From positions 55,706 through 119,705 of IMG/VR virus record IMGVR_UViG_3300008122_000001: a DNA stretch of 64,000 nt; one strand, written 5' to 3'. Made by a program: the position numbers and the translations under genes. This DNA comes from a virus. Taxonomy: Duplodnaviria > Heunggongvirae > Uroviricota > Caudoviricetes. The notes below the pieces were generated by a model that saw only the letters and a list, made by a program, of their open reading frames with translations, had not been told where the DNA came from and did no database searches. Numbering within the stretch: the stretch's first letter is position 1; the number at the start of each line of letters is the position of its first letter. Positions 18,794 to 54,828 of this stretch are shown here, piece by piece.

Positions 18794-18806
18794 TTATATT
18801 TATCCT

Positions 18807-31334: not shown

Positions 31335-31446
31335 AATTTCCTCTCGAAAACTAGAATTTTTTTGAATTTCCTCTCGAAAACTAGAATTTTTTTGAATTTC
31401 CTCTCGAAAACTAGGATTTTTTTGAATTTTATTCGAGAGGACTAGG
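31335..31446. repeat. three tandem 30-bp direct repeats plus an inverted core
   Basis: AATTTCCTCTCGAAAACTAG(A/G)ATTTTTTTG at 31335, 31365 and 31395; then TCGAGAGG (reverse complement of CCTCTCGA) at 31433. Confidence 0.95.
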
Positions 31447-31838: not shown

Positions 31839-32207
31839 ATGACATCATTCAATAAAGGAATCTTCAATATGATTACTATCTTCAACACAACTGGTCGTTC
31901 TCTTCTTTCTCATACTAACTTAGTTATTCATAACTTCCCTTTCTTTAAGGAAGAATTAATTACTCTTAGTAATGACCAAGTTAAACATGTGTTCAAAGAA
32001 ACAACTGCTACTGTTATTGTAGTAAAAGACGTAGTTGTTGGTGCTCGTGCTCATGCTGATAACCCTAACGCTGACATCTATGTGTTAACTAAAGACACAC
32101 ATTGCGTAACACTATTAGTTAAAGGTGTTAATGGCATTAAAGAAACAACAACAGTAACAACAGAAGACTATGTAATGTGTTCTTCTGAAATGATCACTTG
32201 GAAATAA
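31839..32207 (+). CDS. hypothetical protein
   Basis: TAAGG RBS; ends next to the RNAP start. Confidence 0.7.
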   Translation: MTSFNKGIFNMITIFNTTGRSLLSHTNLVIHNFPFFKEELITLSNDQVKHVFKETTATVIVVKDVVVGARAHADNPNADIYVLTKDTHCVTLLVKGVNGIKETTTVTTEDYVMCSSEMITWK

Positions 32208-32218
32208 GGAATACTACC

Positions 32219-35813: not shown

Positions 35814-35847
35814 AGACTATATTAATTCGTTAGTATAGTCTTTTTTT
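35814..35847 (+). terminator. intrinsic terminator after the RNAP gene
   Basis: AGACTATATTAA-TTCG-TTAGTATAGTCT followed by TTTTTT. Confidence 0.8.
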
Positions 35848-35873
35848 ACATCTATTAAAAAAGGAATACCATC

Positions 35874-36596
35874 ATGAATAAATATCAACTTGTTATATCT
35901 TTAATTGAAGATATTAATAACTTCTCTGCTACTTACTTAACAGATCATGAAGAAGCAAAAGAAGAATACTCTCGCTTTACTAATGCTATTGAAGAAGCTC
36001 ATCTACATGGATTATATAATGAAGCTATTAGTTATTATAATTTTAAATATCTAATAGATTTACATGGAGAAAATGCAAGCTTCTTTATAAGAAGTATTAA
36101 GGAGTATAAAGGAACTCCAGAGTTAGCTAAACGGTTAATACAAATGGCTAATGGCTCTGAATTATTAGATTCTATTTTAGCTAAACCATCATGGGGTAGA
36201 AAAGAGTTATTATCTCTTCCTTATGGTAAAGAGTTAGCTGAAGAAATGGTAAAAATAAATAAAACAAACCTTGGTACTAAAGATATCGTTTACTTGTTAT
36301 TCGGTATTAAGTCTAAGGAATATGGTTTCACATACTATAATGAGTTTGTAGATATGATGAAACAACAAAAAACAATGATCAACAAAGAAGTTGCTCAACA
36401 ATTACTTAAATCTTTTTGGGAGAATACAAGAGATGACTACAAAACAAGTTCAATACTTTTTAACACTATTAAGTCTATTATTATTAGTCTTAATACTTCT
36501 TTAACAAATAACAACAGTACACAACAATTACGGATTAAGTTTATGGAAGAGTTCTTACGGATAACATTAAATGACTCCGTAAGAAGCACTCCGTAA
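35874..36596 (+). CDS. hypothetical protein
   Basis: 240 aa, AAGGA RBS. Confidence 0.75.
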   Translation: MNKYQLVISLIEDINNFSATYLTDHEEAKEEYSRFTNAIEEAHLHGLYNEAISYYNFKYLIDLHGENASFFIRSIKEYKGTPELAKRLIQMANGSELLDSILAKPSWGRKELLSLPYGKELAEEMVKINKTNLGTKDIVYLLFGIKSKEYGFTYYNEFVDMMKQQKTMINKEVAQQLLKSFWENTRDDYKTSSILFNTIKSIIISLNTSLTNNNSTQQLRIKFMEEFLRITLNDSVRSTP

Positions 36597-36969
36597 AAAG
36601 CTTATTATGTGTGGAAGTCAATTCCCCGCTAAAGAGTATTTAGTCACGTAATTGATTTAAGTCAACTCCCGACCTCGACCTACTAATTACTTTCGTTGTT
36701 GATTGTATGTTGGTTGTGTCGTAGGTCTCTGAGTTGTCAACGTTTGTTCTAATGGAGAGTACAATGAAAGCTTCGACTCCGTTTCCAGGTCAAGTGATCT
36801 GATGTATCACGTACTATGAAAGTTGTTAATGAAATAGTTGTAGGTGTTCGTTCCTCACAAAATGCTTTGTGGATTTACCTTAAGCAACTTAAGGGTATAA
36901 CACGACAAGCATCAATATTGGTTACTGTTTAGAGTCCTGGTATTGAATGTAAACCGATGGAGAGTTGTT

Positions 36970-37814: not shown

Positions 37815-38021
37815 ATGAAACCATCTATTATCAAAAAAGAGGATAAAGTCTTTCTAGCTGTTCCTCCTAGTATCATTATATTCTTATTTCGTCATAAGAA
37901 AATAGATAAAAAAGATATAGTAATACTTGAACATATCGAGTATCTAAATATGGAAAAGTTATCTGATCCTGATTTACAAGCACATTTACTTAGAAATCCT
38001 CTTATAACTAAAGTTGATTAA
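37815..38021 (+). CDS. hypothetical protein
   Basis: AAGGGGG RBS. Confidence 0.7.
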   Translation: MKPSIIKKEDKVFLAVPPSIIIFLFRHKKIDKKDIVILEHIEYLNMEKLSDPDLQAHLLRNPLITKVD

Positions 38022-38063
38022 TAATTTATACCATTATTTATATGATGGTATATGTAATTAATT
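38016..38063 (+). promoter_or_regulatory. early hairpin element 1
   Basis: GATTAAT/ATTAATT lower stem, AATT/TGTA loop, TATACCATTA/TGATGGTATA upper stem. Confidence 0.85.
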
Positions 38064-38076
38064 ACAGGAGACACTA

Positions 38077-38472
38077 ATGTCTACATTAACAATTGAATTT
38101 CGAGATAATACAATAATTGCTTCTGAAGTTGTGTTTCTTGATGAGGAAATAGAACGTACAGTTGCTAATGCATTTCGTTTTGCATTAAAGGCTTATCTTT
38201 ATTATAAAGATTATCGTCTATTAGATTTCTCTGGGCATAGTGGTATTAATCATCAGACGGTATCTCGTCAACTTGGTGCTACTAAAAGTGTTACACAAGC
38301 TATAAACCATCAAATGGCATTAGATGTGTGTGCATACTATAGTGTTCAGTTTGAATATCTGTATGTAATAGCTGAACAGTTTGTAAAAAACCCTGAGTAT
38401 AACTCTATATCTTTTAAAGAAGATGGTACTGTTATATTTCTTAAGGCATTTAAATTACGCTTTGGAGATTAA
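38077..38472 (+). CDS. putative XRE-like HTH protein
   Basis: YRLLDFSGHSGINHQTVSRQL helix-turn-helix pattern. Confidence 0.45.
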   Translation: MSTLTIEFRDNTIIASEVVFLDEEIERTVANAFRFALKAYLYYKDYRLLDFSGHSGINHQTVSRQLGATKSVTQAINHQMALDVCAYYSVQFEYLYVIAEQFVKNPEYNSISFKEDGTVIFLKAFKLRFGD

Positions 38473-38473
38473 T

Positions 38474-38761
38474 ATGGATAAGCAAGCTGCAATAGATTAT
38501 CTAAATACAGTATTACCTTTTGGTGATAATGGTGAAGATCATCAATGTGAGTTAGATGGTAACAATATTCCAAATATGAATAAGTTACTTGAAATACTCA
38601 AAGATGGTTTTGGTTATTTAGCAATTAGTGCTTATGATCCTAACCTAGGTGAAGGACTAATCTTTGTAAATATGTCTAGAACAGGTGACGAATATATTAC
38701 AGTAACTCCTTGTACGCTTAATTTTAAGCTTATGGAAGCTATATATTCAATTCTATCTTAG
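38474..38761 (+). CDS. hypothetical protein
   Basis: GGAG RBS before ATG 38474. Confidence 0.7.
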   Translation: MDKQAAIDYLNTVLPFGDNGEDHQCELDGNNIPNMNKLLEILKDGFGYLAISAYDPNLGEGLIFVNMSRTGDEYITVTPCTLNFKLMEAIYSILS

Positions 38762-38808
38762 ATTAACAATTTATACCTATTCAAGTTAGTAGGTATATGT
38801 GGTTAATT
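38761..38808 (+). promoter_or_regulatory. early hairpin element 2
   Basis: GATTAAC/GTTAATT, AATT/TGTG, TATACCTATT/AGTAGGTATA. Confidence 0.85.
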
Positions 38809-38831
38809 AGTTCAATAAAAGGAAAAGAAGT

Positions 38832-39833
38832 ATGTCTACTTCAATAACACTTCCACAAATAGCATTCACTGCTAATTATGAAGATGATATAAAAAATACT
38901 ATCTTCAATGCAATGGATTGTAAACTTCAGTCTAACCGTCGCTTTAACCATGAAACACGTTGGTTTAAAGATTTTCCTGAGTTTACTCTTAGTGCTAGTC
39001 CTTCTTGGTCTGATAAATCTAGAGTAGAAATCAGTCGTGATTTTGGTAAATATTTTGATATGAGTATTGAACGTATTAATGCGCTTTATAATCATATCAA
39101 AGGATTATTCCCTAATGGTACTTTCATGTGTCGTTATAATACAACATATGATATTACTATACATCAGATCTTTAGCTTAGGGTCTCATGTCTGGGCTAAT
39201 GCTGATCTTCAGTCTGTATTTTATTGTGAACCTCCTGTAATGCCTACAGAGTACAATGAATGGAAAGATTCTGTTACTAATCATGATTATACTTATATGA
39301 TGAGTGACTGTGCAGGAAGTCATCGTGCTGGACAAGCATCTGAAGAACGTATAAAAGAGCTTAAATCAAAGCTTGATCTTCGGATATGTACTCTTTGGTA
39401 TAATTATATTTTAGGTCGTATGCGTGTTCGTCCTCAAGATATGTCTTTTGGTGATCATTCTAAAGAGACTTGGAATACTCTTGAAGAAGCTTATAAAGAG
39501 TTTCGTATTATTCCTTCACATGCTCCGTATGTAGAACTTGGTACTACTCCAGTTAATACTCCTTGTCTTGGGTTCACTGCTCATGATAAGCGAAGTGGTT
39601 GGATGGAAGGTGATATGAAGTATGAAGGATATGTAAGTAATAATTACTTTGTATCTAAAGAAGAGTATGATAACTCTCAGATTCCAGTGATAGTGTTCCA
39701 TAATTATCCTGAAAAAGGTATATTGGTTTCAGAGAAATGTGAGACTAATAAGCATGATCTTTCTAAACTATTAGAACGTCATTCATGGCAGGATCACTAT
39801 TATACCTTAGAACCTGAAGGTAAATTAAAATAA
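38832..39833 (+). CDS. hypothetical protein
   Basis: 333 aa, AAGGA RBS. Confidence 0.8.
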   Translation: MSTSITLPQIAFTANYEDDIKNTIFNAMDCKLQSNRRFNHETRWFKDFPEFTLSASPSWSDKSRVEISRDFGKYFDMSIERINALYNHIKGLFPNGTFMCRYNTTYDITIHQIFSLGSHVWANADLQSVFYCEPPVMPTEYNEWKDSVTNHDYTYMMSDCAGSHRAGQASEERIKELKSKLDLRICTLWYNYILGRMRVRPQDMSFGDHSKETWNTLEEAYKEFRIIPSHAPYVELGTTPVNTPCLGFTAHDKRSGWMEGDMKYEGYVSNNYFVSKEEYDNSQIPVIVFHNYPEKGILVSEKCETNKHDLSKLLERHSWQDHYYTLEPEGKLK

Positions 39834-39882
39834 TCAATTACATGCATTTGCTTTAATAGTAGATGTATGTGCTAGATTATTT
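39828..39882 (+). promoter_or_regulatory. early hairpin element 3
   Basis: AAATAATC/GATTATTT, AAT/CTA, 14-bp upper stem with four G-T pairs. Confidence 0.85.
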
Positions 39883-39903
39883 ACTTATATAAGGATAACT
39901 ACT

Positions 39904-40284
39904 ATGTTAGTTCATCAATCTAATCGTTCTTGTAATTGTTGTGGTAATATGGTTGATCCCTCTATTATTGATATACCTATACAAGAAATCAAACTTGCTC
40001 CATTTGCAGTAAAATGTAAATGTGGTTACTTCTTTGAAGCTTATCACTATACAGTGTCATTTCGTAAATGGCGAGTAGCAAAAGGTGAATTAGGTTTTCG
40101 TTTAGATAATGCACAATCAGATTATCAACGAGAAAAAGAGTTTATTGAAACTCATTCTCCTATATCTGATTACATGCATATAGATCTAAAACGTAAAGAA
40201 GATTTAGTTCTTAAATTACATGCTGAATGGGATGAAATTTCTCTTAATCCTATTCCTGATCACTTATGGATAGATAAAGATTAA
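39904..40284 (+). CDS. hypothetical Zn-finger-like protein
   Basis: CNCCG...CKCG. Confidence 0.7.
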   Translation: MLVHQSNRSCNCCGNMVDPSIIDIPIQEIKLAPFAVKCKCGYFFEAYHYTVSFRKWRVAKGELGFRLDNAQSDYQREKEFIETHSPISDYMHIDLKRKEDLVLKLHAEWDEISLNPIPDHLWIDKD

Positions 40285-40331
40285 CAATTTATAATACTTA
40301 TCTATATGGTAGGTATTATATGTGGTTAATT
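40279..40331 (+). promoter_or_regulatory. early hairpin element 4
   Basis: GATTAAC/GTTAATT, AATT/TGTG, 13-bp upper stem. Confidence 0.85.
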
Positions 40332-40345
40332 TAGAGTATAAACTT

Positions 40346-40600
40346 ATGAAAAAAGGTTTTAAACTTACAGATGGTAGTATATGGACTATCATTTCTTATG
40401 AGACTGTTGAAGGTTATGAAGATAAACTTGAATCTGAAATTCCATTAAGTGCTATTACTGTAGTTACTGGTGTTAAATGGGTTCAAAACCATACTCATAC
40501 CCATCCTTGTAATGCTTGTTTCTCTGATTGTAACTTTGAAGATTTCAATGTTAATGATCCTCGCATTATAGAATTAACTGACGATGTATTCTCATTATAA
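40346..40600 (+). CDS. hypothetical protein
   Basis: ATG 40346 preferred because GTG 40322 lies inside the hairpin. Confidence 0.65.
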   Translation: MKKGFKLTDGSIWTIISYETVEGYEDKLESEIPLSAITVVTGVKWVQNHTHTHPCNACFSDCNFEDFNVNDPRIIELTDDVFSL

Positions 40601-40610
40601 GGAATAAATA

Positions 40611-40808
40611 ATGAAATTAGATGGTTGGTCTGTTAATACACATAACCACTTCACAAAGAAAGGTTATACTGTAAGACCATATATAGATTCACCTACATTC
40701 TTTATTGAATTACCTAATGGTAAATATCATAAAAGAGATTGTAAAAGTCTACATGGTGCTCTTAAAGTTGTTGAACGTTTAATATTAAAAGAAGGAAAAG
40801 TTAAATAA
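40611..40808 (+). CDS. hypothetical protein
   Basis: AAGGA RBS. Confidence 0.7.
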   Translation: MKLDGWSVNTHNHFTKKGYTVRPYIDSPTFFIELPNGKYHKRDCKSLHGALKVVERLILKEGKVK

Positions 40809-41029
40809 TGGCTACTATTTATTTAATACAATGTTATCTTAAAAGTGATAATAGTTGGGTTGAAACATCCTCTGCTTGTACTTCTCGTAAAGATGCAGAA
40901 GAACGTTCTGATAACCTAAACAAAAACTTTGACCGACATTACCATCAAATAGAAACAATTACTCTTAATGGTGTAGTAAAGAGTCAAATGGAAAATAACT
41001 GTTATGTATTTGGAATAAACGAAAGTTAA
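40808..41029 (+). CDS. hypothetical protein
   Basis: TAATG coupling to the previous gene. Confidence 0.7.
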   Translation: MATIYLIQCYLKSDNSWVETSSACTSRKDAEERSDNLNKNFDRHYHQIETITLNGVVKSQMENNCYVFGINES

Positions 41030-41075
41030 TAAATTTATAAGACTTATACTAATAGGTCTTATATGTGTATTAACT
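41024..41075 (+). promoter_or_regulatory. early hairpin element 5
   Basis: AGTTAATA/TATTAACT, AATT/TGTG, TATAAGACTTAT/ATAGGTCTTATA. Confidence 0.85.
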
Positions 41076-41108
41076 GTAACACTCACTTTAAAACAAGGAA
41101 ATATCCTC

Positions 41109-41960
41109 ATGTTAAAATTATCAATTCCTGCTTCAATTCTTACTGCTGTATCTACATCTATAGGTTCTTTATTAACTGGTGTTATAACAACAGAAAAGAA
41201 TAACTTAAAACTTAATGCCATTCTTAAAACACGTAATAAGAGCATGGCTAAAGCTTTTGGTGTTCCTGTAGAAGAATATGTAAAGAATAAAGAAGAAAAA
41301 CGAGCTAAATCTTTAGCTAATATTCTTTCTAAACTTACATTATCTGAAATTAAACCTATTACTACAAAAATAGGATCTGTTAGTGTAGTAGGTGAAACAG
41401 TAGAAATAGCAATTAATGATCAATATATTGTTGATTGTATTGAAGCTTCTACTCGTGTAGGTCTTCGTATGCTTAAACCTTTATCTGATATAGCTGTTAT
41501 TGTAGAAGAAGAAGGTACTAAAACTGAAGCCATGCTTAAAACATGGGAAGAAGATAAAGTAGATGTTCCTCCTACTGAGCCAAAAGATCCTGAACCAGAA
41601 ACAGAAGTTAAAATTGTAGATGCTCTTGACCTGCCTTCTGAAACAACAACTGAGCTACTAAAAGAAGAACAACCTAAAGATAATAATATTTTTAATGGTT
41701 GGTCTATTATCTCAAGTACATTTAGTTCTAAACCTTTCTTTACTGATGAAAAAAAAGAACAGTGGATTGATTTGTATTATCTTACTTGTACAAATAAAGA
41801 AGGTAATTCTCTTCAAGTAGGTCAGACAGTAAGTAAAGCAATTCTTTCATCTAAACTTAGTATTAAAGATACTGCTGTAGAACAAGAACTACCTGAATCT
41901 TTAGTAGTAGCTGTATATGAATATTATGGATTTAAATCTTTAGCTACTAAACCTGAATAA
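41109..41960 (+). CDS. hypothetical protein
   Basis: 283 aa, AAGGA RBS, Pro/Glu-rich linker. Confidence 0.8.
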   Translation: MLKLSIPASILTAVSTSIGSLLTGVITTEKNNLKLNAILKTRNKSMAKAFGVPVEEYVKNKEEKRAKSLANILSKLTLSEIKPITTKIGSVSVVGETVEIAINDQYIVDCIEASTRVGLRMLKPLSDIAVIVEEEGTKTEAMLKTWEEDKVDVPPTEPKDPEPETEVKIVDALDLPSETTTELLKEEQPKDNNIFNGWSIISSTFSSKPFFTDEKKEQWIDLYYLTCTNKEGNSLQVGQTVSKAILSSKLSIKDTAVEQELPESLVVAVYEYYGFKSLATKPE

Positions 41961-42009
41961 TTAACAATTACATATACTTCTTTAATAGAGGTATATGTGC
42001 TGGTTAATT
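41959..42009 (+). promoter_or_regulatory. early hairpin element 6
   Basis: AATTAAC/GTTAATT, AAT/CTG, TACATATACTTCT/AGAGGTATATGTG. Confidence 0.85.
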
Positions 42010-42025
42010 AAGTAGAGTAAATAAT

Positions 42026-42256
42026 ATGTTATTTGGATCTAACAAATCTTATAACTTAACAGGTTGGACATTTGAACAACTTAATCCTTATTCTTCTTTA
42101 TATAAAAAAGATGGATATACTATCAATGTAAAACTTGTTGATTCACCTGATGTAGGTATCTGTAATGTTGTAGATATTTACAAAGATGATCAATTTCTTA
42201 CTTCTAAAAATAATTTAGAAGAAGCATTAATAGCAATAGGAGAAAATCCACTATGA
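42026..42256 (+). CDS. hypothetical protein
   Basis: ORF directly after a hairpin element. Confidence 0.7.
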   Translation: MLFGSNKSYNLTGWTFEQLNPYSSLYKKDGYTINVKLVDSPDVGICNVVDIYKDDQFLTSKNNLEEALIAIGENPL

Positions 42257-42678
42257 AATATGTTATTGCTTTAGCTTTACCTGGTGGTCTACTTGTAGAG
42301 CTTCGTGGTCATCATAATTCTTATGAAGAAACCCTTCAATACTTACATAAACATTATAAATCATTTAAAGATTCAGATGTTTATATTATTCACTATGATG
42401 GTGATCATGCTGATTATGGTTCTCCTTATAAGTTTAATATGAGTACTTATTACTCATGTGAAGATGGTGTTTACTATGAAGAACATTATGATGAAATCGA
42501 TGCTGGTTTAGGTGTAAAAGAAATTGGTTCATCACTTCTAGTTAATAATGATCTACTTCCTCAAGCTTTAAAAGATAATGGTGAATTAGTAGAGAAAGCT
42601 ATTGAAGATTGGATTAATTCCCATCTTACTAATCCTAAAGTAAACCCTGCAACTATTAAGCCTAACTGGTTAATATAG
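42253..42678 (+). CDS. hypothetical protein
   Basis: AGGAG RBS, ATGA-type overlap. Confidence 0.75.
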   Translation: MKYVIALALPGGLLVELRGHHNSYEETLQYLHKHYKSFKDSDVYIIHYDGDHADYGSPYKFNMSTYYSCEDGVYYEEHYDEIDAGLGVKEIGSSLLVNNDLLPQALKDNGELVEKAIEDWINSHLTNPKVNPATIKPNWLI

Positions 42679-42727
42679 TTAAACAATTACATACATTTCT
42701 AATTGAGATGTATGTGTTGGTTTAATT
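42677..42727 (+). promoter_or_regulatory. early hairpin element 7
   Basis: AGTTAAAC/GTTTAATT, AAT/TTG, TACATACATTTC/GAGATGTATGTG. Confidence 0.85.
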
Positions 42728-42743
42728 GTAAAAGGTATGTATT

Positions 42744-43073
42744 ATGTCTTTAGAATATCATATATTAATAGGTAATAATCATAGTGTAGATCTTTGTCTT
42801 CATGGTCAATCTGTACTCTTTAATACAGATACTAATGAATATAAATTTCAAATAAATAATGAAGAACCTTTCTATACTGAATCTGTAGAAGAAATGCGTA
42901 AAAACAATTATATTGAAGTTATTCATACTCTAGATGAACACTACTATTATGAAAAATGTGAACAAATTTATAACTTTGAAGAATCATACAACTTCTGTTA
43001 TCTAAATCCTCAATATAGTTATTTTGTACGCAACATTTGTAATATTAGAGCACATAAAGATTTAAATTTTTAA
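42744..43073 (+). CDS. hypothetical protein
   Basis: AAGGT RBS. Confidence 0.7.
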   Translation: MSLEYHILIGNNHSVDLCLHGQSVLFNTDTNEYKFQINNEEPFYTESVEEMRKNNYIEVIHTLDEHYYYEKCEQIYNFEESYNFCYLNPQYSYFVRNICNIRAHKDLNF

Positions 43074-43083
43074 GGAGACTGTA

Positions 43084-43470
43084 ATGTCTAAAGAACAGTA
43101 TAAATATGAATGGCAATTAATATCTCTCATGACAGATAATTATGGTATCTCTTTAGATGAGTTTACTAAATTAGTACATGAACAATTTGAAGCTGTACCT
43201 TATCATGATATTACTAGTACACATGAACGTATTAGTGCTAAGAAATTATATCATATCATAGAAACTGATAACTTTAATGGAGATTATCCAAATGAACATT
43301 TTGTTAGTTTCATTGATCATGAAGGTAAGTCTCGTCCTTTAGTCTTTGATAAAAAAGAAGATGCTCAAGTAATTGCTAAAGCATTTAATCAAATCAAATA
43401 CGGTGGAGCTAATCGTTACTTCATGGAAGTAGATAAAGCTCGTAAATTATTTGGTCCATTTGAACCTTAA
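43084..43470 (+). CDS. hypothetical protein
   Basis: AAGGAG RBS. Confidence 0.75.
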   Translation: MSKEQYKYEWQLISLMTDNYGISLDEFTKLVHEQFEAVPYHDITSTHERISAKKLYHIIETDNFNGDYPNEHFVSFIDHEGKSRPLVFDKKEDAQVIAKAFNQIKYGGANRYFMEVDKARKLFGPFEP

Positions 43471-43484
43471 TTAGGAATATAACT

Positions 43485-43799
43485 ATGAAAAATCAAGATG
43501 TAGTAACACTAGATATAACTCGTGAACAACAAGCAGAAAGCTTTGCAAGAGGAGGAGTTAAAGCTATGGGTGTTTGTATAGCTCTTAGTTCAAATGAACA
43601 TCCTCTTGTACGTTTAGGTGGTCTTACATTATCTGTATTTCCTAAAAGTTCAAAAGCTTTAGTACCATTAGCTATATCTTTAGGTGGTTGGATACTTGCT
43701 AAAGATAAGAAAAAAGCATTCATTCAACGTGCTTTCTGCTTTGGTAGTACTATAACAGTAGCAGGTCTTATTAGTTATGAACCATCAAAAAAAATATAA
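43485..43799 (+). CDS. hypothetical protein with hydrophobic segments
   Basis: AGGA RBS. Confidence 0.7.
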   Translation: MKNQDVVTLDITREQQAESFARGGVKAMGVCIALSSNEHPLVRLGGLTLSVFPKSSKALVPLAISLGGWILAKDKKKAFIQRAFCFGSTITVAGLISYEPSKKI

Positions 43800-44022
43800 A
43801 TTAGAAGTAACTGTACATCAGTTTACTGAAAATGGTCGTAGTATACAGACTAAATATATTTCAAATTTAAATCAAAAAAGTATTCCTGAAATTCATAAAG
43901 AAGGTAATTATCTTCACATTGGTTTTCCTAATCATGATACTGAAGATTACTTTAAAGATTTTATTAAATTTGAAATAAAACAAACTAACTACAAACTTCA
44001 TATGACTCACTGGGAAATGTAA
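43777..44022 (+). CDS. hypothetical protein
   Basis: ORF filling the operon gap. Confidence 0.6.
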   Translation: MNHQKKYKLEVTVHQFTENGRSIQTKYISNLNQKSIPEIHKEGNYLHIGFPNHDTEDYFKDFIKFEIKQTNYKLHMTHWEM

Positions 44023-44023
44023 A

Positions 44024-44230
44024 ATGGCAAATAAATCTGCTACTCCGTTAATACGTCTTGAATCTCAGCATACAATCAATGGTATTGCAGTTGGTACTAG
44101 TATTGAAAGTGCTGAACGTATTAAAAATGCTTCTTTTGCTTTACATGCATTAATTGAAACTCATGATCTTAGTGAACATGAAGCTGGATTAATGTTAAAA
44201 GTTGTATTTCCTCAATTAAAAGGTATTTAA
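44024..44230 (+). CDS. hypothetical protein
   Basis: coupled ORF. Confidence 0.65.
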   Translation: MANKSATPLIRLESQHTINGIAVGTSIESAERIKNASFALHALIETHDLSEHEAGLMLKVVFPQLKGI

Positions 44231-44479
44231 ATGAAAGAGTACTTATTACTAGGTATATTATCATTACCTAATACTGGAACTGTTATTCAAAAGGTTAGTC
44301 ATAAATTAGATAACCGTGAAGAATATAATACTCAAGATTTCAATTTGAAAGAATGGGAACAATATGTTCTTGATTTCATGGAAATCACAAGTATTGATAA
44401 TGAAGATTTAGTATTAACTATTATTATTGTTAATCTTAAAAATACTTCAGACTTCAAAACTTATACAAAAAGTAAATAG
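44231..44479 (+). CDS. hypothetical protein
   Basis: AAGGT RBS. Confidence 0.65.
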   Translation: MKEYLLLGILSLPNTGTVIQKVSHKLDNREEYNTQDFNLKEWEQYVLDFMEITSIDNEDLVLTIIIVNLKNTSDFKTYTKSK

Positions 44480-44532
44480 ATAATAAATTACATATACTTA
44501 TTTTAATTATAGGTATATGTTGTGTATTATTT
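44478..44532 (+). promoter_or_regulatory. early hairpin element 8
   Basis: AGATAATA/TATTATTT, AATT/TGTG, ACATATACTTAT/ATAGGTATATGT. Confidence 0.85.
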
Positions 44533-44553
44533 AAAGCCACAAGGAATACTATT

Positions 44554-45288
44554 ATGTCTTATATTTATAATGATTCAATACTTATACCTCAAAAAACATA
44601 TAAGGTACAAGAAGTATTAAAAGCTGGTAAAGAAGCTAAACGATTTAAAAATTGTAGTGCATTTCTTACTCAAATCATTAATGATCAAGCAAGTGTACGT
44701 ATTACTAATAACATGCATTCAGTTCCTGTTCGTTGTTTAATCAATGTAAAAGGATATACTGCTAAACCTGTACGTGCTGAAAATGCTCATGGTTTTGCTG
44801 TAGTTATGCAAAATAGTATTGGTATTCCAGTAGGTCGTGCTTATATTGGTCCTACTCGTGTAACATCAGATAGAGCTTACTTTGATATCAATGGTTCAGA
44901 AATTTCTATTCCTTTAAACCTTACTTGTTGCTTAGTTAAAATTGAAGAAAAAGTAACAAAAGAAGCTAAGAAAGTAGAAAAAGAAACTGGTATTCCTCAT
45001 AAACTTGTTGATTTATTAGATGATAAATCAGCTCGTAAAGAACCAGAAGAACCTTTACCAATATTTGTTAAGAAATTATTTCCTAATCTTATTGTAGAAG
45101 AAGTAAGAGAAAGAATTCGAAATGAACATCGTCCTGTATATGATATGGATGGTAATGATCACAACACAATTGCAGAAGCTGAAAGAGCCAATGTATTAAT
45201 TAAACAACGTATTCTAACACAACATGTAAAAATCATGGTAGATATGGAATATGATCGTCAAGAAGCTGAAGCCCTTAAAAAGGGCTAA
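44554..45288 (+). CDS. hypothetical protein
   Basis: 244 aa, AAGGA RBS. Confidence 0.8.
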   Translation: MSYIYNDSILIPQKTYKVQEVLKAGKEAKRFKNCSAFLTQIINDQASVRITNNMHSVPVRCLINVKGYTAKPVRAENAHGFAVVMQNSIGIPVGRAYIGPTRVTSDRAYFDINGSEISIPLNLTCCLVKIEEKVTKEAKKVEKETGIPHKLVDLLDDKSARKEPEEPLPIFVKKLFPNLIVEEVRERIRNEHRPVYDMDGNDHNTIAEAERANVLIKQRILTQHVKIMVDMEYDRQEAEALKKG

Positions 45289-45309
45289 GCCTTCGGCTTC
45301 AAATGGTTT

Positions 45310-45450
45310 ATGAATATGAATTCTTATCAAGTAACATTCTATGATCTAACAACCTGGATCACGGAGGGTAGTAGTTCTCTCCATGCTAGGAGATTAGCAA
45401 GAGAATATTACCCAACAAGATTCGTAACACATGTAATTCAAATTAAATAG
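45310..45450 (+). CDS. 46-aa ORF missing from the track
   Basis: open frame MNMNSYQVTFYDL...IQIK fills the gap before ssb. Confidence 0.4.
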   Translation: MNMNSYQVTFYDLTTWITEGSSSLHARRLAREYYPTRFVTHVIQIK

Positions 45451-45461
45451 GAGTATACCTC

Positions 45462-45860
45462 ATGCAAGGTATTAATCAAGTTGTTCTAATGGGCACATTA
45501 GGTAATAAACCAGAACTTAAAACTTTCCCTAACGGTGGTAAATCAACACGTATTTCTTTAGCCACTTCTATGTCTTGGATTGATTCAGACTCTGGTGAAC
45601 GTAAAGAAAAAACACAATGGCACTCTGTAGTACTGCGTAATCGTCAAGCTGAAATTGCAGTACAATACTTAGATAAAGGTGATCGTGTTGGTGTTGTTGG
45701 TCGTTTAGAAACACGGAGTTATGTAAAAGATAATATTACTTTTTATGTAACTGAAGTTATTAGTACTAATTTACAAATGATCAGTACTAAAAATAAATCA
45801 CCTAACATTCCTGCTGAAGTATCTATTCCACCTGATATGGATGATGACTTACCATTCTGA
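45462..45860 (+). CDS. ssb: single-stranded DNA-binding protein, bacterial type
   Basis: GINQVVLMGTLGNKPELKTFPNGG...WHSVVL...GRLETRSY; C-terminal DDDLPF tail. Confidence 0.95.
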   Translation: MQGINQVVLMGTLGNKPELKTFPNGGKSTRISLATSMSWIDSDSGERKEKTQWHSVVLRNRQAEIAVQYLDKGDRVGVVGRLETRSYVKDNITFYVTEVISTNLQMISTKNKSPNIPAEVSIPPDMDDDLPF

Positions 45861-45863
45861 TCT

Positions 45864-45923
45864 AGATAATAGATTTATAATACTTATTATAGAAATATAG
45901 TAGGTATTATATGTATATTATTT
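45864..45923 (+). promoter_or_regulatory. early hairpin element 9
   Basis: AGATAATA/TATTATTT, GATT/TGTA, 16-bp upper stem with a GAAA tetraloop. Confidence 0.85.
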
Positions 45924-45940
45924 AACATAGGAGTAATAAA

Positions 45941-46213
45941 ATGAATAATATAGAATTTAATACTCGTTTGATTAATATCTTAAAAATGAGAAATAAACTA
46001 AAACGTAGTGAATTGGTAGATTTATTAAGACAGTTTTGGAAACATAACAAACAACAGTTACAAACAATTTATCATTATCATTGTTATCAATTAGTTGTTA
46101 AAGTTCTTAATCATTTTGATAATATTATCTTACAAAGCAACAATCGTTACTACTATGTTTATAAAAATGTATTAGTAGATTTTGTAGAAAAAAGTACTCA
46201 AAACCCTATATAG
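45941..46213 (+). CDS. hypothetical protein (possible winged-helix)
   Basis: AGGAG RBS; N-terminal similarity to 50782-50982 (IL...(L/I)(K/T)...EL...L). Confidence 0.65.
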   Translation: MNNIEFNTRLINILKMRNKLKRSELVDLLRQFWKHNKQQLQTIYHYHCYQLVVKVLNHFDNIILQSNNRYYYVYKNVLVDFVEKSTQNPI

Positions 46214-46561
46214 GTATTGATTAATTTCAAAATGTAATGTTAATTATGTAGAGATATATATAAATATAAGTATACATTTATAAACTTAAATGTACATTAC
46301 ATATTAACTATCTATTTGTTATATAATGGTGACTCCGTGCCACAAGAACTGAAACTAGTTACGTTACTATTCCTCACTATTGTCTCTATAGTGTCTCTTT
46401 CGACTTACTGTAATACTTTATACCAATAAGCCTAATAATGGCTACAAGGAGCTTACAATGCATTCTACAACCAATCTAGTACCAGCTGTAGTACACAATT
46501 TAAATGAAGTTTATTTATTTATGTACGGTCAATTACAAACTTCAGATTTCCTTTCTTAATC

Positions 46562-46611
46562 TGTTATTCAATTTATATCACTTCTTATGAGGTGATATAT
46601 GTAGACTAACA
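46562..46611 (+). promoter_or_regulatory. early hairpin element 10
   Basis: TGTTATTC/GACTAACA (one mismatch), AATT/TGTA, TATATCACTTC/GAGGTGATATA. Confidence 0.85.
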
Positions 46612-46626
46612 CTTAGGTATACTATC

Positions 46627-47028
46627 ATGTATCGCTTATATAAAACTTACATCAATTCAGATGGCTCTTATTTCGATATGGAAGCCGTTTACTTTAATTG
46701 CATACAAGAGCACAGTAAACTTCTTAATCGCTCTCTAAAGACCTGTGAAGCTCATGATGGTGTACTTTGTAAAGTAGCTTACACCCTTGAACCTTTATAT
46801 CTTTCTGAAGCTTATCAACGATCAGCAGTGTATCATATTAGTAATGCTAATAATATTAATACTCTTACTGAGTTTAAAACATGCCTTAAAGAATATTTTC
46901 CTGAATATATCAAATATATTTCTAACGAAAATATTATTAAAGAATTAAAACATATGGCTTCTTTTGTACTAAGTGGTGAAAGAATCTATCCTGATATTAA
47001 ACGTATCATTGAAGTAAAAGGTAAATAA
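46627..47028 (+). CDS. hypothetical protein
   Basis: AGGT RBS. Confidence 0.7.
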   Translation: MYRLYKTYINSDGSYFDMEAVYFNCIQEHSKLLNRSLKTCEAHDGVLCKVAYTLEPLYLSEAYQRSAVYHISNANNINTLTEFKTCLKEYFPEYIKYISNENIIKELKHMASFVLSGERIYPDIKRIIEVKGK

Positions 47029-47119
47029 TTATGTATGAGATCTATTTATACTTAGTTGGATTACACCCTTCTATGTTTCTTCCTAAAAACTTAATTAAAT
47101 TAATAAAGGTAGAACCACA

Positions 47120-47491
47120 ATGACTCAAGAAAAGAATAAGTTTAATCAACTTATGAATACTCATCTTGATGCTCTTTATGCATTAAATCAATATCAAGAA
47201 CAATGTGTAAATGTAAGTTTAAATGGTTCTGTAGATTGTATGGAACTCCGTGCATTACACAATGTAATTGCTCAACATTTTCCTGAATTAATTTCCTCTC
47301 GTCGCATCAGCGATGGGGGAAGTAATAAAATGACATTAATTGCTAAAGTAGAAGAAATTAAACCTGCTTTAGAATTAATCCTTTCTGAATATCCTCGTAT
47401 CTCTTCTAGTATTGTTGGTATCTCACTACAAAAAATGATTAATGAATTAGAACCACAATTAAACTTTAAATTATTCCCTAACTATCGTTAA
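47120..47491 (+). CDS. hypothetical protein
   Basis: AAGGT RBS. Confidence 0.75.
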   Translation: MTQEKNKFNQLMNTHLDALYALNQYQEQCVNVSLNGSVDCMELRALHNVIAQHFPELISSRRISDGGSNKMTLIAKVEEIKPALELILSEYPRISSSIVGISLQKMINELEPQLNFKLFPNYR

Positions 47492-47503
47492 AAGGATTGT
47501 ACT

Positions 47504-48073
47504 ATGACTACTCAACAACCTACTGCATATTCTTTATTTCTTACAGCTTGGGAAAATGCTCCTAAGATTCCTTTCAAAATGGAATGGAAAAATGGTACTG
47601 GTTATCTAGATCATGCAACTAATGATGATGAATTAGATATTCCTTATAATGAATTCCGTGCAACTATTGATGATTATGGACGTTATGTATTACTTAAAGG
47701 TTTAGGTCTTAAATGTAATATTGTAGTCTTTGAACGTCATGTTCATGGTATGAGTGAAATCTTAGTAAATAATCAACCATCTCGTCGTCATACTAAAAAA
47801 GTTGATTTAACTAACTGGGTAGACATTAAAGATGGTTCTCTTGATTTACGTAATATGGAAATCTTCCTGAATTTACGTGATAATTTATTAATCATTAATG
47901 ATGCTGGTATTGAATACATTAATAAAAATGTAGACTCTGCTTTAGTATCTACTGGTGATTTTGAAATCTTAATCAATGATTGCTATACAGGTGTTAAACA
48001 ACAAGACCTTCAAGCTTTTGGTATTGATATCAACACACTATATGTCTATGGTTATATTCAGGATTTAGTATAA
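47504..48073 (+). CDS. hypothetical protein
   Basis: AAGGA RBS; WKNGTGYLD...DDYGR...IVVFERH pattern. Confidence 0.8.
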   Translation: MTTQQPTAYSLFLTAWENAPKIPFKMEWKNGTGYLDHATNDDELDIPYNEFRATIDDYGRYVLLKGLGLKCNIVVFERHVHGMSEILVNNQPSRRHTKKVDLTNWVDIKDGSLDLRNMEIFLNLRDNLLIINDAGIEYINKNVDSALVSTGDFEILINDCYTGVKQQDLQAFGIDINTLYVYGYIQDLV

Positions 48074-48330
48074 TGGAAAACCCTATTACTGTACTATTAT
48101 TCTTTCTTGGATTAGAACAAGGTGATCAAAACTTTGATTCTAAACTAGTATATAAATTAGGTATGCCTATTCCTAATGCTAAATTATACTTAGATATTGC
48201 TAATTGGGATAAGAATTGGTGTCAAACTTTAAGTGAGCGTTTATGCTTTCCTAAAGACTATTGGTATAATTTATTATGTCAATATAATGCATCTAAAGTA
48301 GATAACATTATCGAAACAGAATTTAAATAA
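48073..48330 (+). CDS. hypothetical protein
   Basis: TAATG coupling. Confidence 0.7.
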   Translation: MENPITVLLFFLGLEQGDQNFDSKLVYKLGMPIPNAKLYLDIANWDKNWCQTLSERLCFPKDYWYNLLCQYNASKVDNIIETEFK

Positions 48331-48375
48331 TAAATTTATAGGACTTACTTAGGTAGGTTCTATATGTGTATTATT
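48326..48375 (+). promoter_or_regulatory. early hairpin element 11
   Basis: AATAATA/TATTATT, AATT/TGTG, TATAGGACTTAC/GTAGGTTCTATA. Confidence 0.85.
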
Positions 48376-48391
48376 ACAAAGAGATATTAAT

Positions 48392-48565
48392 ATGTGGGAA
48401 AAGATTAAACCTAACTTTTCAAATGTAAAAGAAGGTAAAGAATACAAAACTTGTATTAATGATGAACAAGGGTTACGTAATATTGCAACACTAAGAAAAC
48501 AAGGTAACTTGTGGTTTTCTGGTAACAGTTACGTTTACTATACTCCTACTCACATTTGGGTATAA
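48392..48565 (+). CDS. 57-aa ORF missing from the track
   Basis: MWEKIKPNF...GLRNIATLRKQGNLWF...YYTPTHIWV; AGAG RBS. Confidence 0.65.
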   Translation: MWEKIKPNFSNVKEGKEYKTCINDEQGLRNIATLRKQGNLWFSGNSYVYYTPTHIWV

Positions 48566-48566
48566 T

Positions 48567-48740
48567 ATGAAAATAGTTATTGTACATCCTTCACTTATTT
48601 CTATATTTAAACAATGCTCTGTTGCTTCATCATTAGATAATTGTAGTAATAAAGAATATCAAAAGTTTACTAATCATGGTCGTAAATTACCTAATCATAG
48701 TAAACATAAAGCTAATATTAAAAAAGGAAACTTTCCTTAA
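48567..48740 (+). CDS. 57-aa ORF missing from the track
   Basis: starts 2 nt after the previous stop; its TAA is at the base of hairpin 12. Confidence 0.55.
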   Translation: MKIVIVHPSLISIFKQCSVASSLDNCSNKEYQKFTNHGRKLPNHSKHKANIKKGNFP

Positions 48741-48788
48741 TTAATAAATTTATAGGAATTATTATTAGTTCCTATATGTGTATTAATT
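48739..48788 (+). promoter_or_regulatory. early hairpin element 12
   Basis: AATTAATA/TATTAATT, AATT/TGTG, TATAGGAATTA/TAGTTCCTATA. Confidence 0.85.
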
Positions 48789-48803
48789 AATATCGAGGTT
48801 ATT

Positions 48804-49550
48804 ATGTTTCTTGTACCTATTCCTAGAGCTATAGCTAAAGAACGTGGATTAAAACATTACGATTCAACATCATTTTGTAAATTTGGAAATATCAGTAAAC
48901 GCCTTGTAAGTAATTTTAACTGTCTTTGTAATTCTTGCAAAAAAGAAAAGTATAATAAAGTAAAGGATTATAAAAAAACTCCCAAAGCTAAAGAACTTAG
49001 AAAAATAACTAATCAAAATTATTACAAAGAGAATAAAGAAATTATTCTTAGTAATAATAAAATATGGAGAGATGGAGTTGGATCTGAGATTAAAAAGTTA
49101 GCTGATAAAAGATGGGCTACAGAAAATAGAGACAAAGTTAATTTATCTCAAAGAAAACATTACCGTAATAATCTTCAAAAACAACGAGCTAGAAGAAGAC
49201 TTTGGAACATGAAGAATCGCCCTAAAAAAGCTATGTATACTTTTGAAAGACGACTTCTTACTTCATATGCATATCTTAAAAGTGAGTTAACTGACTTTGT
49301 ATTTGAACAATCACAAGAATTAGCCCAACAACGTGAAACACTTTTAGGTATTAAAATTCATGTTGATCATATGATACCTCTTAAAGCTAAAAATACTTGT
49401 GGATTACATGTTTGGAATAATTTTCAATGCTTACCTAGTGTGATGAATAGTAGTAAAGGTAATAAACTTATCTATACCAATCCTCATGAATGGTTATATG
49501 ATATTCCTAAATTCTTTAAAGTAGTATATCAACAGGAGATTGCTGCATGA
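48804..49550 (+). CDS. HNH (homing-type) endonuclease
   Basis: IHVDHMIPL...CGLHVWNNFQCLPSVMNSSKGNK; basic helical repeats upstream. Confidence 0.85.
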   Translation: MFLVPIPRAIAKERGLKHYDSTSFCKFGNISKRLVSNFNCLCNSCKKEKYNKVKDYKKTPKAKELRKITNQNYYKENKEIILSNNKIWRDGVGSEIKKLADKRWATENRDKVNLSQRKHYRNNLQKQRARRRLWNMKNRPKKAMYTFERRLLTSYAYLKSELTDFVFEQSQELAQQRETLLGIKIHVDHMIPLKAKNTCGLHVWNNFQCLPSVMNSSKGNKLIYTNPHEWLYDIPKFFKVVYQQEIAA

Positions 49551-49762
49551 AAATGATTAAGTTATTAGTACTATTAGATGGTACTATGGTTAAAGTTTCA
49601 TCTAAAATGGAAGTTGGTACTCTTATGAATACTCATAAAGGTGTCGATCAAATTTGTGGTGCTATTTATTCTGTATCATATGATATTTATAAAAAACGTC
49701 ATAATAAAGTTCTTAAAAAACTTTTTGTTGATAGTATTTATAACCCACAAATTAAATTTTAA
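49547..49762 (+). CDS. hypothetical protein
   Basis: AGGAG RBS. Confidence 0.7.
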   Translation: MKMIKLLVLLDGTMVKVSSKMEVGTLMNTHKGVDQICGAIYSVSYDIYKKRHNKVLKKLFVDSIYNPQIKF

Positions 49763-49814
49763 TAAATCAATAGGATTAAGTACTCCACATATTTGATCCT
49801 ATTCATTTGTTAAA
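49758..49814 (+). promoter_or_regulatory. variant early hairpin (long stem with a C-C mismatch)
   Basis: TTTAATAAAT-C-AATAGGATTAAGTA / TATTTGATCCTATT-C-ATTTGTTAAA, starting at a stop codon. Confidence 0.7.
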
Positions 49815-49840
49815 CTTTGTTAAACTGAGAGACTGTTATT

Positions 49841-50317
49841 GTGTCTAAATTAATCTTAACCGTTGGGATCTCGAATTGTGGTAAATCAGCTTGGACTGAA
49901 CAATTTATCAAAGAACATCCTAATACTGTTGAATTAAATCGTGATTATGTACGCTTTAATATTATTAATCCTAAAGCAAACGATTGGTCTGATTATTCTA
50001 TTAGTGAAACTAAAGAGAATCGTGTCAGTTGTATTCTTATGGAAAAATATAAAGAAGCTATTGAACAAGGTAAAGATGTAATTATCTCTGATACTAATTT
50101 ATCTTACTTTGGTCGTATTAAATGGTTAGAGATTGCAAGACAAAATGGACAAAAAGTTGAATTTGTAGTATTTCATAATAAATTTATTGATACATTTTAT
50201 GGAAACAGTTCTAACTTTATGTCCTTACCTGATTTTGTACTTACTAGTCAATACAAACGTTTTACTCAATTCCTAGATGAAGTTCCTGTTCCTGGAGTTA
50301 AGTATACCTTTATCTAG
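49841..50317 (+). CDS. P-loop kinase, polynucleotide kinase (T4 PseT kinase-domain type)
   Basis: LILTVGISNCGKS, ELNRDYVR, VIISDTNL. Confidence 0.8.
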   Translation: MSKLILTVGISNCGKSAWTEQFIKEHPNTVELNRDYVRFNIINPKANDWSDYSISETKENRVSCILMEKYKEAIEQGKDVIISDTNLSYFGRIKWLEIARQNGQKVEFVVFHNKFIDTFYGNSSNFMSLPDFVLTSQYKRFTQFLDEVPVPGVKYTFI

Positions 50318-50329
50318 AGGATAATTAAT

Positions 50330-50539
50330 ATGAATGTATTAAATTTAATATGCTACATTAATATACAAATAACGAAATGTCATAATCATGATATCAATCT
50401 TGATCGGTTTAAACCTATTCTTAAAGATATTAAGATAAAAGATTTAATTAATTTATTAGAACATGAGGGATACTTTGGATCTTTTCGTGTAACTAATAAA
50501 TCTCTTTATTATATCCATAAAGGAACAGTAAATGTTTAA
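50330..50539 (+). CDS. hypothetical protein
   Basis: GAGG RBS. Confidence 0.65.
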   Translation: MNVLNLICYINIQITKCHNHDINLDRFKPILKDIKIKDLINLLEHEGYFGSFRVTNKSLYYIHKGTVNV

Positions 50540-50720
50540 ACAAATATTTGAAACAATCTTCCCATTACATATGCTTATAGCTTTAGTAACATGTTTCTAT
50601 ATTAATATGTATATATTTAAATCAGAGCATATAGTACAAAGTGTTGTAGGTTCTTTTATTATTTATTTAATATTAACTTTCATTATGTTATATATTTATT
50701 TTAAATATATAAAAAGTTAA
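50532..50720 (+). CDS. small two-TM membrane protein
   Basis: two hydrophobic helices; AAGGA RBS. Confidence 0.65.
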   Translation: MFKQIFETIFPLHMLIALVTCFYINMYIFKSEHIVQSVVGSFIIYLILTFIMLYIYFKYIKS

Positions 50721-50766
50721 TAAATTTATATCATTCTTAAATTAGGATGATATATGTATATTAACT
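50715..50766 (+). promoter_or_regulatory. early hairpin element 13
   Basis: AGTTAATA/TATTAACT, AATT/TGTA, TATATCATTCT/AGGATGATATA. Confidence 0.85.
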
Positions 50767-51354: not shown

Positions 51355-51435
51355 TTCCACTACCGAAGCTCGTTCCTCGCCAAATGCTTTTAGGAATTTC
51401 TTCTATCAATTTATCAGTCTACAAGGACTTTACAA

Positions 51436-54146: not shown

Positions 54147-54828
54147 GAATAGTTGTTACTGATAGATACTATGTCACTTCGTTCCATAGTATCTATCTAT
54201 TCATTTCTTCCTCTTATCCCACACCGAACAACCTTCGGTTGCAAATGCTTTATGGAGTTAAAGCTTTAAACTCTAGATTGCTACTTCCTTTACTTTTAGG
54301 TCTTAAAATGTCCCCTAAGTTTTATGAAATTATTCATAGTCTATTATATTATATTGGTTTACCAACTATAGTAATATTAATATACATTACTACCTATCAT
54401 TCCTTTATTAGATAATTAATATCTATTTAAGAATGGTAAAGACTAGTTAGTCTAGTCCCCCGAATTAGTTCTTTTTAAGATATATAAAGACTAGTTCAAC
54501 TAATTAGTTCAACGTAGTCATACTAATTCGAGATACCTCAGAAAAAAGACAACTTTTTCATGGGGTAGATATTACTTTTAGTCTACTAATTAACTTTTAT
54601 CTTATCCTTATTTATACCTATTAATTACTAAGTCTTTGATTTATAAAGATTAAGTAATAATTAGAGATAATTTAAAGGTAAGAGTAATGTTTTTTACGGG
54701 GTAGATATTACTCTGAGTGGTTCTTTACAAATTCTTTGTTAACTTCGTCCATAATATTTTTATATAGATATTATAGAGAAGCTAATAAAAGCTTCATGTT
54801 TCATTATTAACAAACAAGGTAATCTATT

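Follow-up and report, generated by a model that had tools for sequence, protein, structure and literature searches.

Intercistronic RNA hairpins with a conserved core in uncultured ME3-like jumbo phages are probable RNase III processing signals

The present work concerns a family of two-tier hairpins that lie between small, co-directional genes in an uncultured phage. The DNA analysed, to which we refer as the window, is a stretch of 64,000 nucleotides (bases 55706-119705) of the 183,705-bp IMG/VR virus record IMGVR_UViG_3300008122_000001, whose completeness is estimated at ∼78% and whose GC content is ∼30%. A minus-strand structural block ends near 31.1 kb of the window and is followed by a plus-strand block of ∼200 genes, which extends from 31.2 kb over the remainder of the record and includes the gene of a 1200-amino-acid (aa) protein resembling RNA polymerase (RNAP) and, downstream of it, the hairpins (Table 1). 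The large terminase is 54% identical to its counterpart in Acinetobacter phage vB_AbaM_ME3 (NC_041884.1), a 234.9-kb phage of wastewater origin that encodes vWA, macro-domain (Appr-1-p), and NAD-synthetase genes. Going by such sequence likeness, the record is an uncultured ME3-like jumbo phage and, since ME3 is its nearest cultured relative by terminase, it probably infects a gammaproteobacterium whose RNase III resembles that of E. coli.

Table 1. Hairpin copies and associated features, in window coordinates. Internal loops are given as 5' side/3' side; upper-stem pairs are counted from the internal loop.
Feature	Position	Strand	Description
RNAP-like protein gene (1200 aa)	32198-35800	+	GNDFDGDLG motif; no Pfam or PHROG match
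Non-coding gap	36597-36942	+	346 nt, between the 240-aa gene and the hairpin array
Copy 1	38015-38064	+	loop AAUU/UGUA; upper stem 11 bp; pair 9 U·G
Copy 2	38760-38809	+	loop AAUU/UGUG; upper stem 10 bp; pairs 9-10 U·G/U-A
Copy 3 (ACAU/AUGU sub-type)	39828-39882	+	loop AAUU/GCUA; upper stem 13 bp; pairs 9-10 U·G/U-A
Copy 4	40278-40332	+	loop AAUU/UGUG; upper stem 13 bp
Copy 5	41024-41075	+	loop AAUU/UGUG; upper stem 12 bp; top model match (69-72 bits)
Copy 6 (ACAU sub-type)	41958-42010	+	loop AAUU/GCUG; upper stem 12 bp
Copy 7 (ACAU sub-type)	42677-42727	+	loop AAUU/GUUG; upper stem 11 bp
Copy 8	44478-44532	+	loop AAUU/UGUG; upper stem 12 bp
Copy 9	45864-45923	+	loop GAUU/UGUA; upper stem 16 bp; extra pairs beyond pairs 9-10
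Copy 10	46562-46611	+	loop AAUU/UGUA; upper stem 11 bp
Copy 11	48325-48376	+	loop AAUU/UGUG; upper stem 12-13 bp
Copy 12	48739-48788	+	loop AAUU/UGUG; upper stem 11 bp
Copy 13	50715-50766	+	loop AAUU/UGUA; upper stem 11 bp; pair 9 U·G, pair 10 C-G
Non-family hairpin	49753-49819	+	after a stop codon, before a gene; no AAUU/UGUG core; no match to covariance model R1 or R2

All 13 sites at which the initial annotation had placed intergenic hairpins of one shared fold indeed fold into a two-tier hairpin. A descriptor that asked for an 8-bp lower stem, RATT, and 10 or more upper-stem pairs matched exactly 15 times on the plus strand of the whole record and not once on its minus strand, and two covariance models, R1 and R2, recovered the identical set of copies; the minus-strand matches of these models were only palindromic reverse readings of true copies, with far lower scores. 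Composition-matched order-2 Markov simulations gave a mean of 0.02-0.14 copies per genome vs. the 15 observed, so that the fold is not frequent by chance, a possibility raised at the outset. Neither the descriptor nor the covariance models found the family in the late (minus-strand) block of the record, in agreement with the earlier view. On the other hand, the proposed ‘phage-wide’ character of the code does not hold, as 13 copies are confined to one 13-kb sub-block (38.0-50.8 kb of the window), where 13 of the 15 intergenic gaps that measure at least 25 nt contain a copy; the two extra copies lie past the window, at genome positions 127089 and 139698, 20 and 33 kb further on. Nor can a hairpin at 49758, originally counted as a variant, be retained in the family, given that it shares the context of the copies but not their covariance models.

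The same hairpins were found beyond this phage. Relatives yielded 53 hairpin-model matches at E ≤ 0.1, and 62 copies from 11 genomes or contigs (this phage and 10 further contigs) were aligned at E ≤ 1e-4 (alignment A6). In all 11 of them, the hairpins lie downstream of the RNAP-like gene and on its strand, while the RNAP-like proteins themselves are 34-97% identical to ours in public assemblies and 19-28% in two IMG/VR contigs; this co-occurrence is biased, the relatives having been sampled through homology to the RNAP-like gene. A scan of IMG/VR for the hairpin pattern returned 106 single matches at about the chance rate, only two contigs being real relatives, and protein-pattern scans of IMG/VR with the RNAP-like protein returned only these same two; metagenome contigs gave no match to the protein. 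ME3 likewise gave no match to the 1200-aa protein, and the hairpin family was not found there: the only weak model match, at 227122-227178 between gp151 and gp150, is a perfect palindrome and was rejected as a family member. Rfam 15 produced no match in the window at the gathering threshold, and the sole match at E ≤ 1 between 36000 and 51500 is to an unrelated small nucleolar RNA model elsewhere. Judged from these comparisons, the hairpin family is an old one that accompanies a single gene neighbourhood.

The copies in the window follow a common plan (13/13), with 8 lower pairs, a 4 × 4 internal loop, an upper stem of 10-16 pairs, and an apical loop of mostly 4-7 nt. Their internal loop reads 5'-AAUU (GAUU once) opposite UGUG, UGUA, GCUA, GCUG, or GUUG. 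Three copies had first been read as AAT opposite CTA, CTG, or TTG, yet they share the register of the others and form 4 × 4 loops with AAUU opposite GCUA, GCUG, and GUUG; they were re-registered before the 13-copy comparison, and a first MAFFT alignment of all 13, in which one sub-type was mis-registered, gave no consensus fold. As to the description of the copies as one fold with divergent sequence, the shared fold stands, but divergence is only part of the picture, since the copies have in common a core comprising AAUU, UAUA, a U·G at pair 9, and UAUAUGUG. This conserved sequence surrounds the internal loop; the lower stems are variable, and a TAA at alignment columns 4-6 accounts for part of their consensus.

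Pair 9 of the upper stem is U·G in 13/13 window copies and in 60/61 aligned copies, and pair 10 is U-A in 11/13 and 46/61, respectively. A descriptor scan of relatives that did not require the wobble still gave U·G at pair 9 in 47 of 50 matches, with none on the opposite strand, and the invariance is therefore not a search artefact. Within the internal loop, the 61 aligned copies contain a purine-purine mismatch throughout (61/61; A·G in 47), followed by an A-U pair in 60, a U·G pair in 50, and a U·U mismatch in 57. Upper pairs 1-4 are mostly UAUA, with G-C or C-G at these four positions in 0, 7, 3, and 7 of the 62 copies. The upper stem spans at least 10 bp in 61/62 and at least 11 bp in 54/62 copies, any extra pairs lie beyond pair 10, and the apical loops (3-9 nt) can have any sequence; the minimum-energy fold comprises 19-25 pairs in 59/62.

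Covariation, whose absence would have spoken against the fold, turned out to be strong. In a MAFFT alignment made without fitting to the structure, pairing holds in 98.3% of cells, compared to 74% upon shuffling and 31-49% with slid partners, and twelve pairs have compensatory changes; in the 62-copy alignment, 97.2% of cells pair (67.8% when shuffled) and 19 of 21 pairs have double changes. G·U exceeds A·C 158 to 4, or 48 to 4 when the two conserved wobble columns are left aside. The sense fold is more stable than the antisense fold in 62/62 copies, with mean folding energies of -18.2 (sense), -9.9 (antisense), and -5.0 kcal/mol (shuffled). These data are in accordance with the earlier claim of a structure specific to the mRNA or non-template strand and point to a fold selected in the sense strand, most simply as RNA, even though single-stranded plus-strand DNA would formally fit as well. 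The G·U excess and the stability of the sense fold argue against a duplex-DNA site. From what comparative sequence analysis can tell, the hairpins constitute a genuine new RNA family with strong support, whose functional kind is a familiar one.

This has consequences for the proposal, put forward initially as an alternative, that the hairpins are structure-defined promoters. They might serve the RNAP-like enzyme either as DNA hairpins or through a linear T[AG]TATGTG located ∼30 nt upstream of the start codon, and, in read-through RNA, might double as terminators in the way of the PeSL elements discussed below. The motif does occur at a near-fixed distance from the start codon (31 nt in 6-7 copies), the number and spacing of the hairpins are like those of T7 class II promoters, and the RNAP-like gene lies just upstream. 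However, that both arms covary and G·U is kept over A·C implies selection on the folded plus strand including the 5' arm, the ACAU sub-type in its common register does not keep the linear motif of the 3' arm in place, and T[AG]TATGTG outside hairpins is not enriched upstream of genes. Sigma-70-like sites in the array are not in excess either (104 vs. 130 in shuffles), and other conserved non-coding motifs, described at the end, are better candidates. A precedent would be the hairpin promoters of the N4 virion RNAP, as there, too, sequences able to form hairpins recur close to the gene of an unusual phage RNAP. The hairpins of N4 consist of stems of 5-7 bp with 3-nt loops and function on the template strand, whereas the present family forms 22-28-pair helices with variable loops and is under selection on the non-template (RNA-sense) strand. 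For the crAss-like gp66, no common upstream motif was found, and the two-barrel RNAPs of P23-45, the one such phage system whose promoters are mapped, use linear AT- or GC-rich motifs and no hairpin (PMC10770324). Promoter function thus appears quite improbable to us.

With respect to the neighbouring genes, the upstream stop codon is located inside the 5' arm of the lower stem (49/61 copies) and not just at its base, where it had been placed at first. Most copies are separated from the next start codon by 9-38 nt (mode 15), and the Shine-Dalgarno sequence begins 3-6 nt past the stem; neither the start codon nor the Shine-Dalgarno sequence is ever within the hairpin. No U-tract was found after the hairpins, consistent with the initial annotation, and with their A-U-rich stems they do not resemble intrinsic terminators, which combine a G+C-rich stem with a U-tract. 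Canonical terminators were not found inside the array, only two upper stems passing a lax scan. In contrast, a canonical intrinsic terminator (12-bp stem plus TTTTTTT; window 35816-35850) directly follows the RNAP-like gene, and because of this, at least one polymerase acting here probably reads ordinary terminators.

Such a placement could be taken as the sign of a translational device, that is, a hairpin melted by the terminating ribosome shortly before the next Shine-Dalgarno sequence, which would couple or insulate translation, or the operator of a repressor. The stop codon within the lower stem, the modal distance to the start codon, and a conserved AUG on the 3' side of the internal loop (51/62 copies) would fit with this idea, yet the ribosome-binding site and start codon always remain outside of the hairpin, T7 RNase III sites overlap stop codons as well, so that compaction explains the overlap, and a translational role gives no reason for the invariant U·G/U-A step. 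We therefore deem it very improbable. The AUG in question occupies columns 59-61 of alignment A6 (e.g. window 41063-41065), and in three copies of the record, two in the window and one just beyond, it forms a start-stop pair. As the start of a mini-open reading frame it was rejected, the lengths of these frames being scattered from 1 to >100 codons, and its presence is probably a side effect of the conserved UAUAUGUG.

On balance, we hold it to be probable that the hairpins are intercistronic RNA elements within a long sense-strand transcript that is cut by host RNase III in the manner of the T7 sites R0.3-R1.3. The conserved features of the family, i.e. the U·G/U-A step, the A-U-only pairs above the internal loop, the ∼11-bp minimum, and the free apical loop, were defined before the literature comparison, and it is the agreement of these features with the known epitopes of RNase III reactivity (PMC1540722) that leads us to favour host RNase III sites. 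According to the work of Pertzev and Nicholson (2006) on E. coli RNase III and minimal T7 R1.1, the substrate is a quasi-continuous double helix of about two turns, in which an 11-bp helix between cut and loop is the shortest reactive length, and the cut is not set by loop sequence or position, four pairs inserted beyond the distal box being tolerated (PMC1540722). As a positive determinant, the distal box is canonically UA/UG and its U·G is stringent, a change of UG to GU costing 50-fold and of UG to AU >30-fold (PMC1540722). In the proximal box, which spans four pairs, G-C or C-G is an antideterminant that blocks binding or catalysis, and internal loops confine the cut to one strand, so that a protective hairpin stays at the 3' end (PMC1540722). 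The hairpins match on several counts: the 8-bp lower stem, the internal loop with its two pairs, and the 10-16-bp upper stem amount to a quasi-continuous helix of about two turns, most upper stems (54/62) reach the 11-bp minimum, and the UA/UG distal box has its counterpart at pairs 9-10 in the same orientation as in T7 R1.1. The suggestion of the initial annotation that the hairpins are read by RNase III or by a phage double-stranded RNA-binding protein gains support in its first part, whereas for the second, a phage-encoded RNase III or double-stranded RNA-binding domain (dsRBD) was searched for in vain.

The likeness to T7 extends to the overall layout. R0.3, R0.5, R1, R1.1, and R1.3 also lie between co-directional genes, and each forms a two-tier hairpin, about two helical turns long, that has an internal loop, at least 10-11 pairs above it, A-U-rich pairs next to it, and a free loop sequence. 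T7 R1.1, as folded here, has 5'-UU/AG-3' (U·G, then U-A) next to the loop-closing pair, which is the same place as that of pairs 9-10 in the family; its cut we take to be position 5887 of the classical T7 annotation. R0.5 and R1 overlap the upstream stop codon and are soon followed by a ribosome-binding site, just as in the family. Still, there is no sequence homology between the two groups. The internal loop is a symmetric 4 × 4 with two potential pairs in the family and asymmetric in T7, and the stems covary freely here, whereas T7 copies share much of their stem sequence. Besides, the family occurs in ME3-related jumbo phages with a single-chain RNAP-like gene.

In the mechanism that we propose, the array would be transcribed into a long RNA, presumably by the phage enzyme, and this RNA would be cut once per hairpin. 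Transcription by the phage enzyme would explain the co-occurrence of the hairpins with the RNAP-like gene, analogous to T7 RNAP and its RNase III sites. Host RNase III would bind the ∼two-turn helix of each hairpin, positioned by the four A-U-only pairs above the internal loop as the equivalent of the proximal box and by the U·G/U-A step at pairs 9-10 as the equivalent of the distal box, and the 4 × 4 internal loop (R·R, A-U, U·G, U·U) would limit cutting to the 3' strand. Placing the 28-nt product reported for R1.1 (PMC1540722) along T7 puts the cut at 10 nt 3' of the wobble G; the same geometry predicts cleavage within UAUAUG^UG on the 3' side of the internal loop, e.g. after window position 41065 in copy 5. 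The upstream message would thereby keep an exonuclease-resistant 3' stem-loop, and the downstream message, its Shine-Dalgarno sequence left free, would begin ∼25 nt upstream of the start codon.

Certain observations weigh against this scenario. Among the sequencing runs listed as containing the stretch, none is recorded as RNA; those of wastewater with a doubtful RNA label exist as contigs and are probably DNA, and four runs, when mapped, revealed neither starts nor ends. The distal- and proximal-box rules derive from the E. coli enzyme and may differ between bacteria (PMC1540722). While pairs 1-4 above the loop are nearly free of G-C, the register of the proximal box is uncertain by about one pair, and some internal-loop motifs are known to allow binding of RNase III without cutting (PMC1540722). 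Moreover, that the core is kept even at an identity of only 19-28% between the RNAP-like proteins of the phages, and that the family was found only where the RNAP-like gene is present, with ME3 giving no match to the protein and lacking the family, would also fit with a reader encoded by the phage.

Such a factor, tied to the RNAP-like enzyme, could use the hairpins as pause, attenuator, terminator, or antiterminator signals, or could be an endoribonuclease or RNA-binding protein that escapes recognition. A dedicated phage system that co-evolved with the RNAP-like enzyme would explain the fixed AAUU/UGUG core and pair-9 U·G despite the divergence of the enzyme, and it would be in line with the position of the family just downstream of the gene, on the same strand, in every genome or contig (19-97% protein identity), with its absence from ME3, and with a core sequence kept beyond the needs of a generic double-stranded RNA substrate. 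However, no nuclease or dsRBD is recognisable: phage-encoded RNase III, dsRBD, T7-like RNAP, and RNAP beta-subunit (PF00562) domains were all searched for and not found. The one gene that in relatives always comes next after the RNAP-like gene encodes a 240-aa protein (window 35874-36596; 37-54% identity), for which a confident (pLDDT 85.5), all-helical model gave no PDB fold match at E ≤ 0.001. Full terminators every 0.4-1.8 kb would in turn need promoters after each of them, but only ∼15 nt with a Shine-Dalgarno sequence follow, and the link to the RNAP-like gene is affected by the sampling bias mentioned above. As a phage factor would also leave the coincidence of the conserved positions with the RNase III epitopes unexplained, we regard it as unlikely, and RNase III processing as the preferred interpretation.

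The hairpins share a further trait with the PeSL cassettes of T4-type phages, in which repeated stem-loops likewise separate small, fast-evolving genes of shuffled order (PMC2839356, PMC4122927). A PeSL consists of a terminator stem-loop and a sigma-70 early promoter, whereas the family has no promoter-like sequence and leaves only ∼15 nt before the start codon; its stems, unlike those of PeSLs, covary around a structured core. One may nonetheless ask whether the hairpins act as cassette boundaries at the DNA level that drive gene shuffling, similar to PeSLs or attC-like sites. Relatives carry the small genes of the array in permuted order, strain variants have insertions or deletions next to hairpins, and in four genomes, a 333-aa gene has retained the hairpins on either side, the rare ACAU sub-type among them. 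But no tyrosine recombinase (PF00589) was found in G000, G002, or the complete genome G001 (a 242.6-kb relative), the sigma-70 promoter component is missing, and recombination needs sequence identity, not covarying stems or conserved wobbles. We thus see hardly any likelihood in this explanation; shuffling is better viewed as a by-product of dispersed repeats, which, by analogy with what has been proposed for PeSLs, probably also serve as recombination points. Joints in variant contigs (e.g. 41971 to 48339, 42675 to 43071, and 48565 to 48728) were not used in this context, their sides being short or not element-to-element.

The 333-aa gene mentioned above is located at 38832-39833 of the window, and at 13846-14859, 18421-19260, and 17587-18390 of the relatives L151, L144, and L146, respectively; in these four genomes, it has hairpins on both sides and differing neighbours. 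Copy 3 sits after this gene, as do its counterparts in three relatives. Near or inside the small-gene array of relatives, there are also DUF723-family genes (L144 19520-20263 and L146 7396-8217), one of them on the opposite strand, which we take to be homing-endonuclease-like.

Altogether, 62 aligned copies from 11 phage genomes or contigs make up a new structured RNA family without an Rfam match. Its carriers are AT-rich jumbo phages of an uncultured clade with Acinetobacter phage ME3 as a relative. The family provides a testable model for the expression of small-gene arrays, in which a long transcript, presumably from a phage polymerase, would be cut at RNase III-type signals, and both the predicted scissile bond and the effect of wobble-pair mutations can be assayed in vitro on synthetic RNA, for which no phage culture is needed. 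As marks of gene-cassette boundaries, the hairpins should aid annotation and the study of cassette shuffling. Should their reader prove to be a phage factor after all, they would offer an entry point to the study of transcription by single-chain two-barrel RNAPs.

Two non-coding motifs in the vicinity of the array would make better promoter candidates than the hairpins. The first lies in the gap behind the gene of the 240-aa protein (Table 1), which contains a block of ∼70 nt (around 36625-36690; CCCGCTAAAGA..GTCACGTAATTG..GTCAACTCCCGACCTCG) and then a strong hairpin. This block is near-invariant in five relatives with RNAP-like proteins of only 47-64% identity, and in all relatives, a non-coding gap of 350-900 nt with a near-invariant ∼70-nt block precedes the array; it may represent the promoter or leader of the array, or a small RNA. 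An intergenic k-mer enrichment for promoters returned only generic TATATA-type words. The second motif, CAAATGCTTTnTGGA, is repeated at window positions 36846-36880, 45288-45314, 51356-51395, and 54222-54260, with a short stretch rich in G+C or a UUCG hairpin ahead of every copy. The two hairpin runs are enclosed by these four copies, which the phage enzyme may use as promoters or terminators. Finally, three tandem 30-bp repeats, together with an inverted copy of their core, are present at 31335-31446 of the window, where the two gene blocks diverge.

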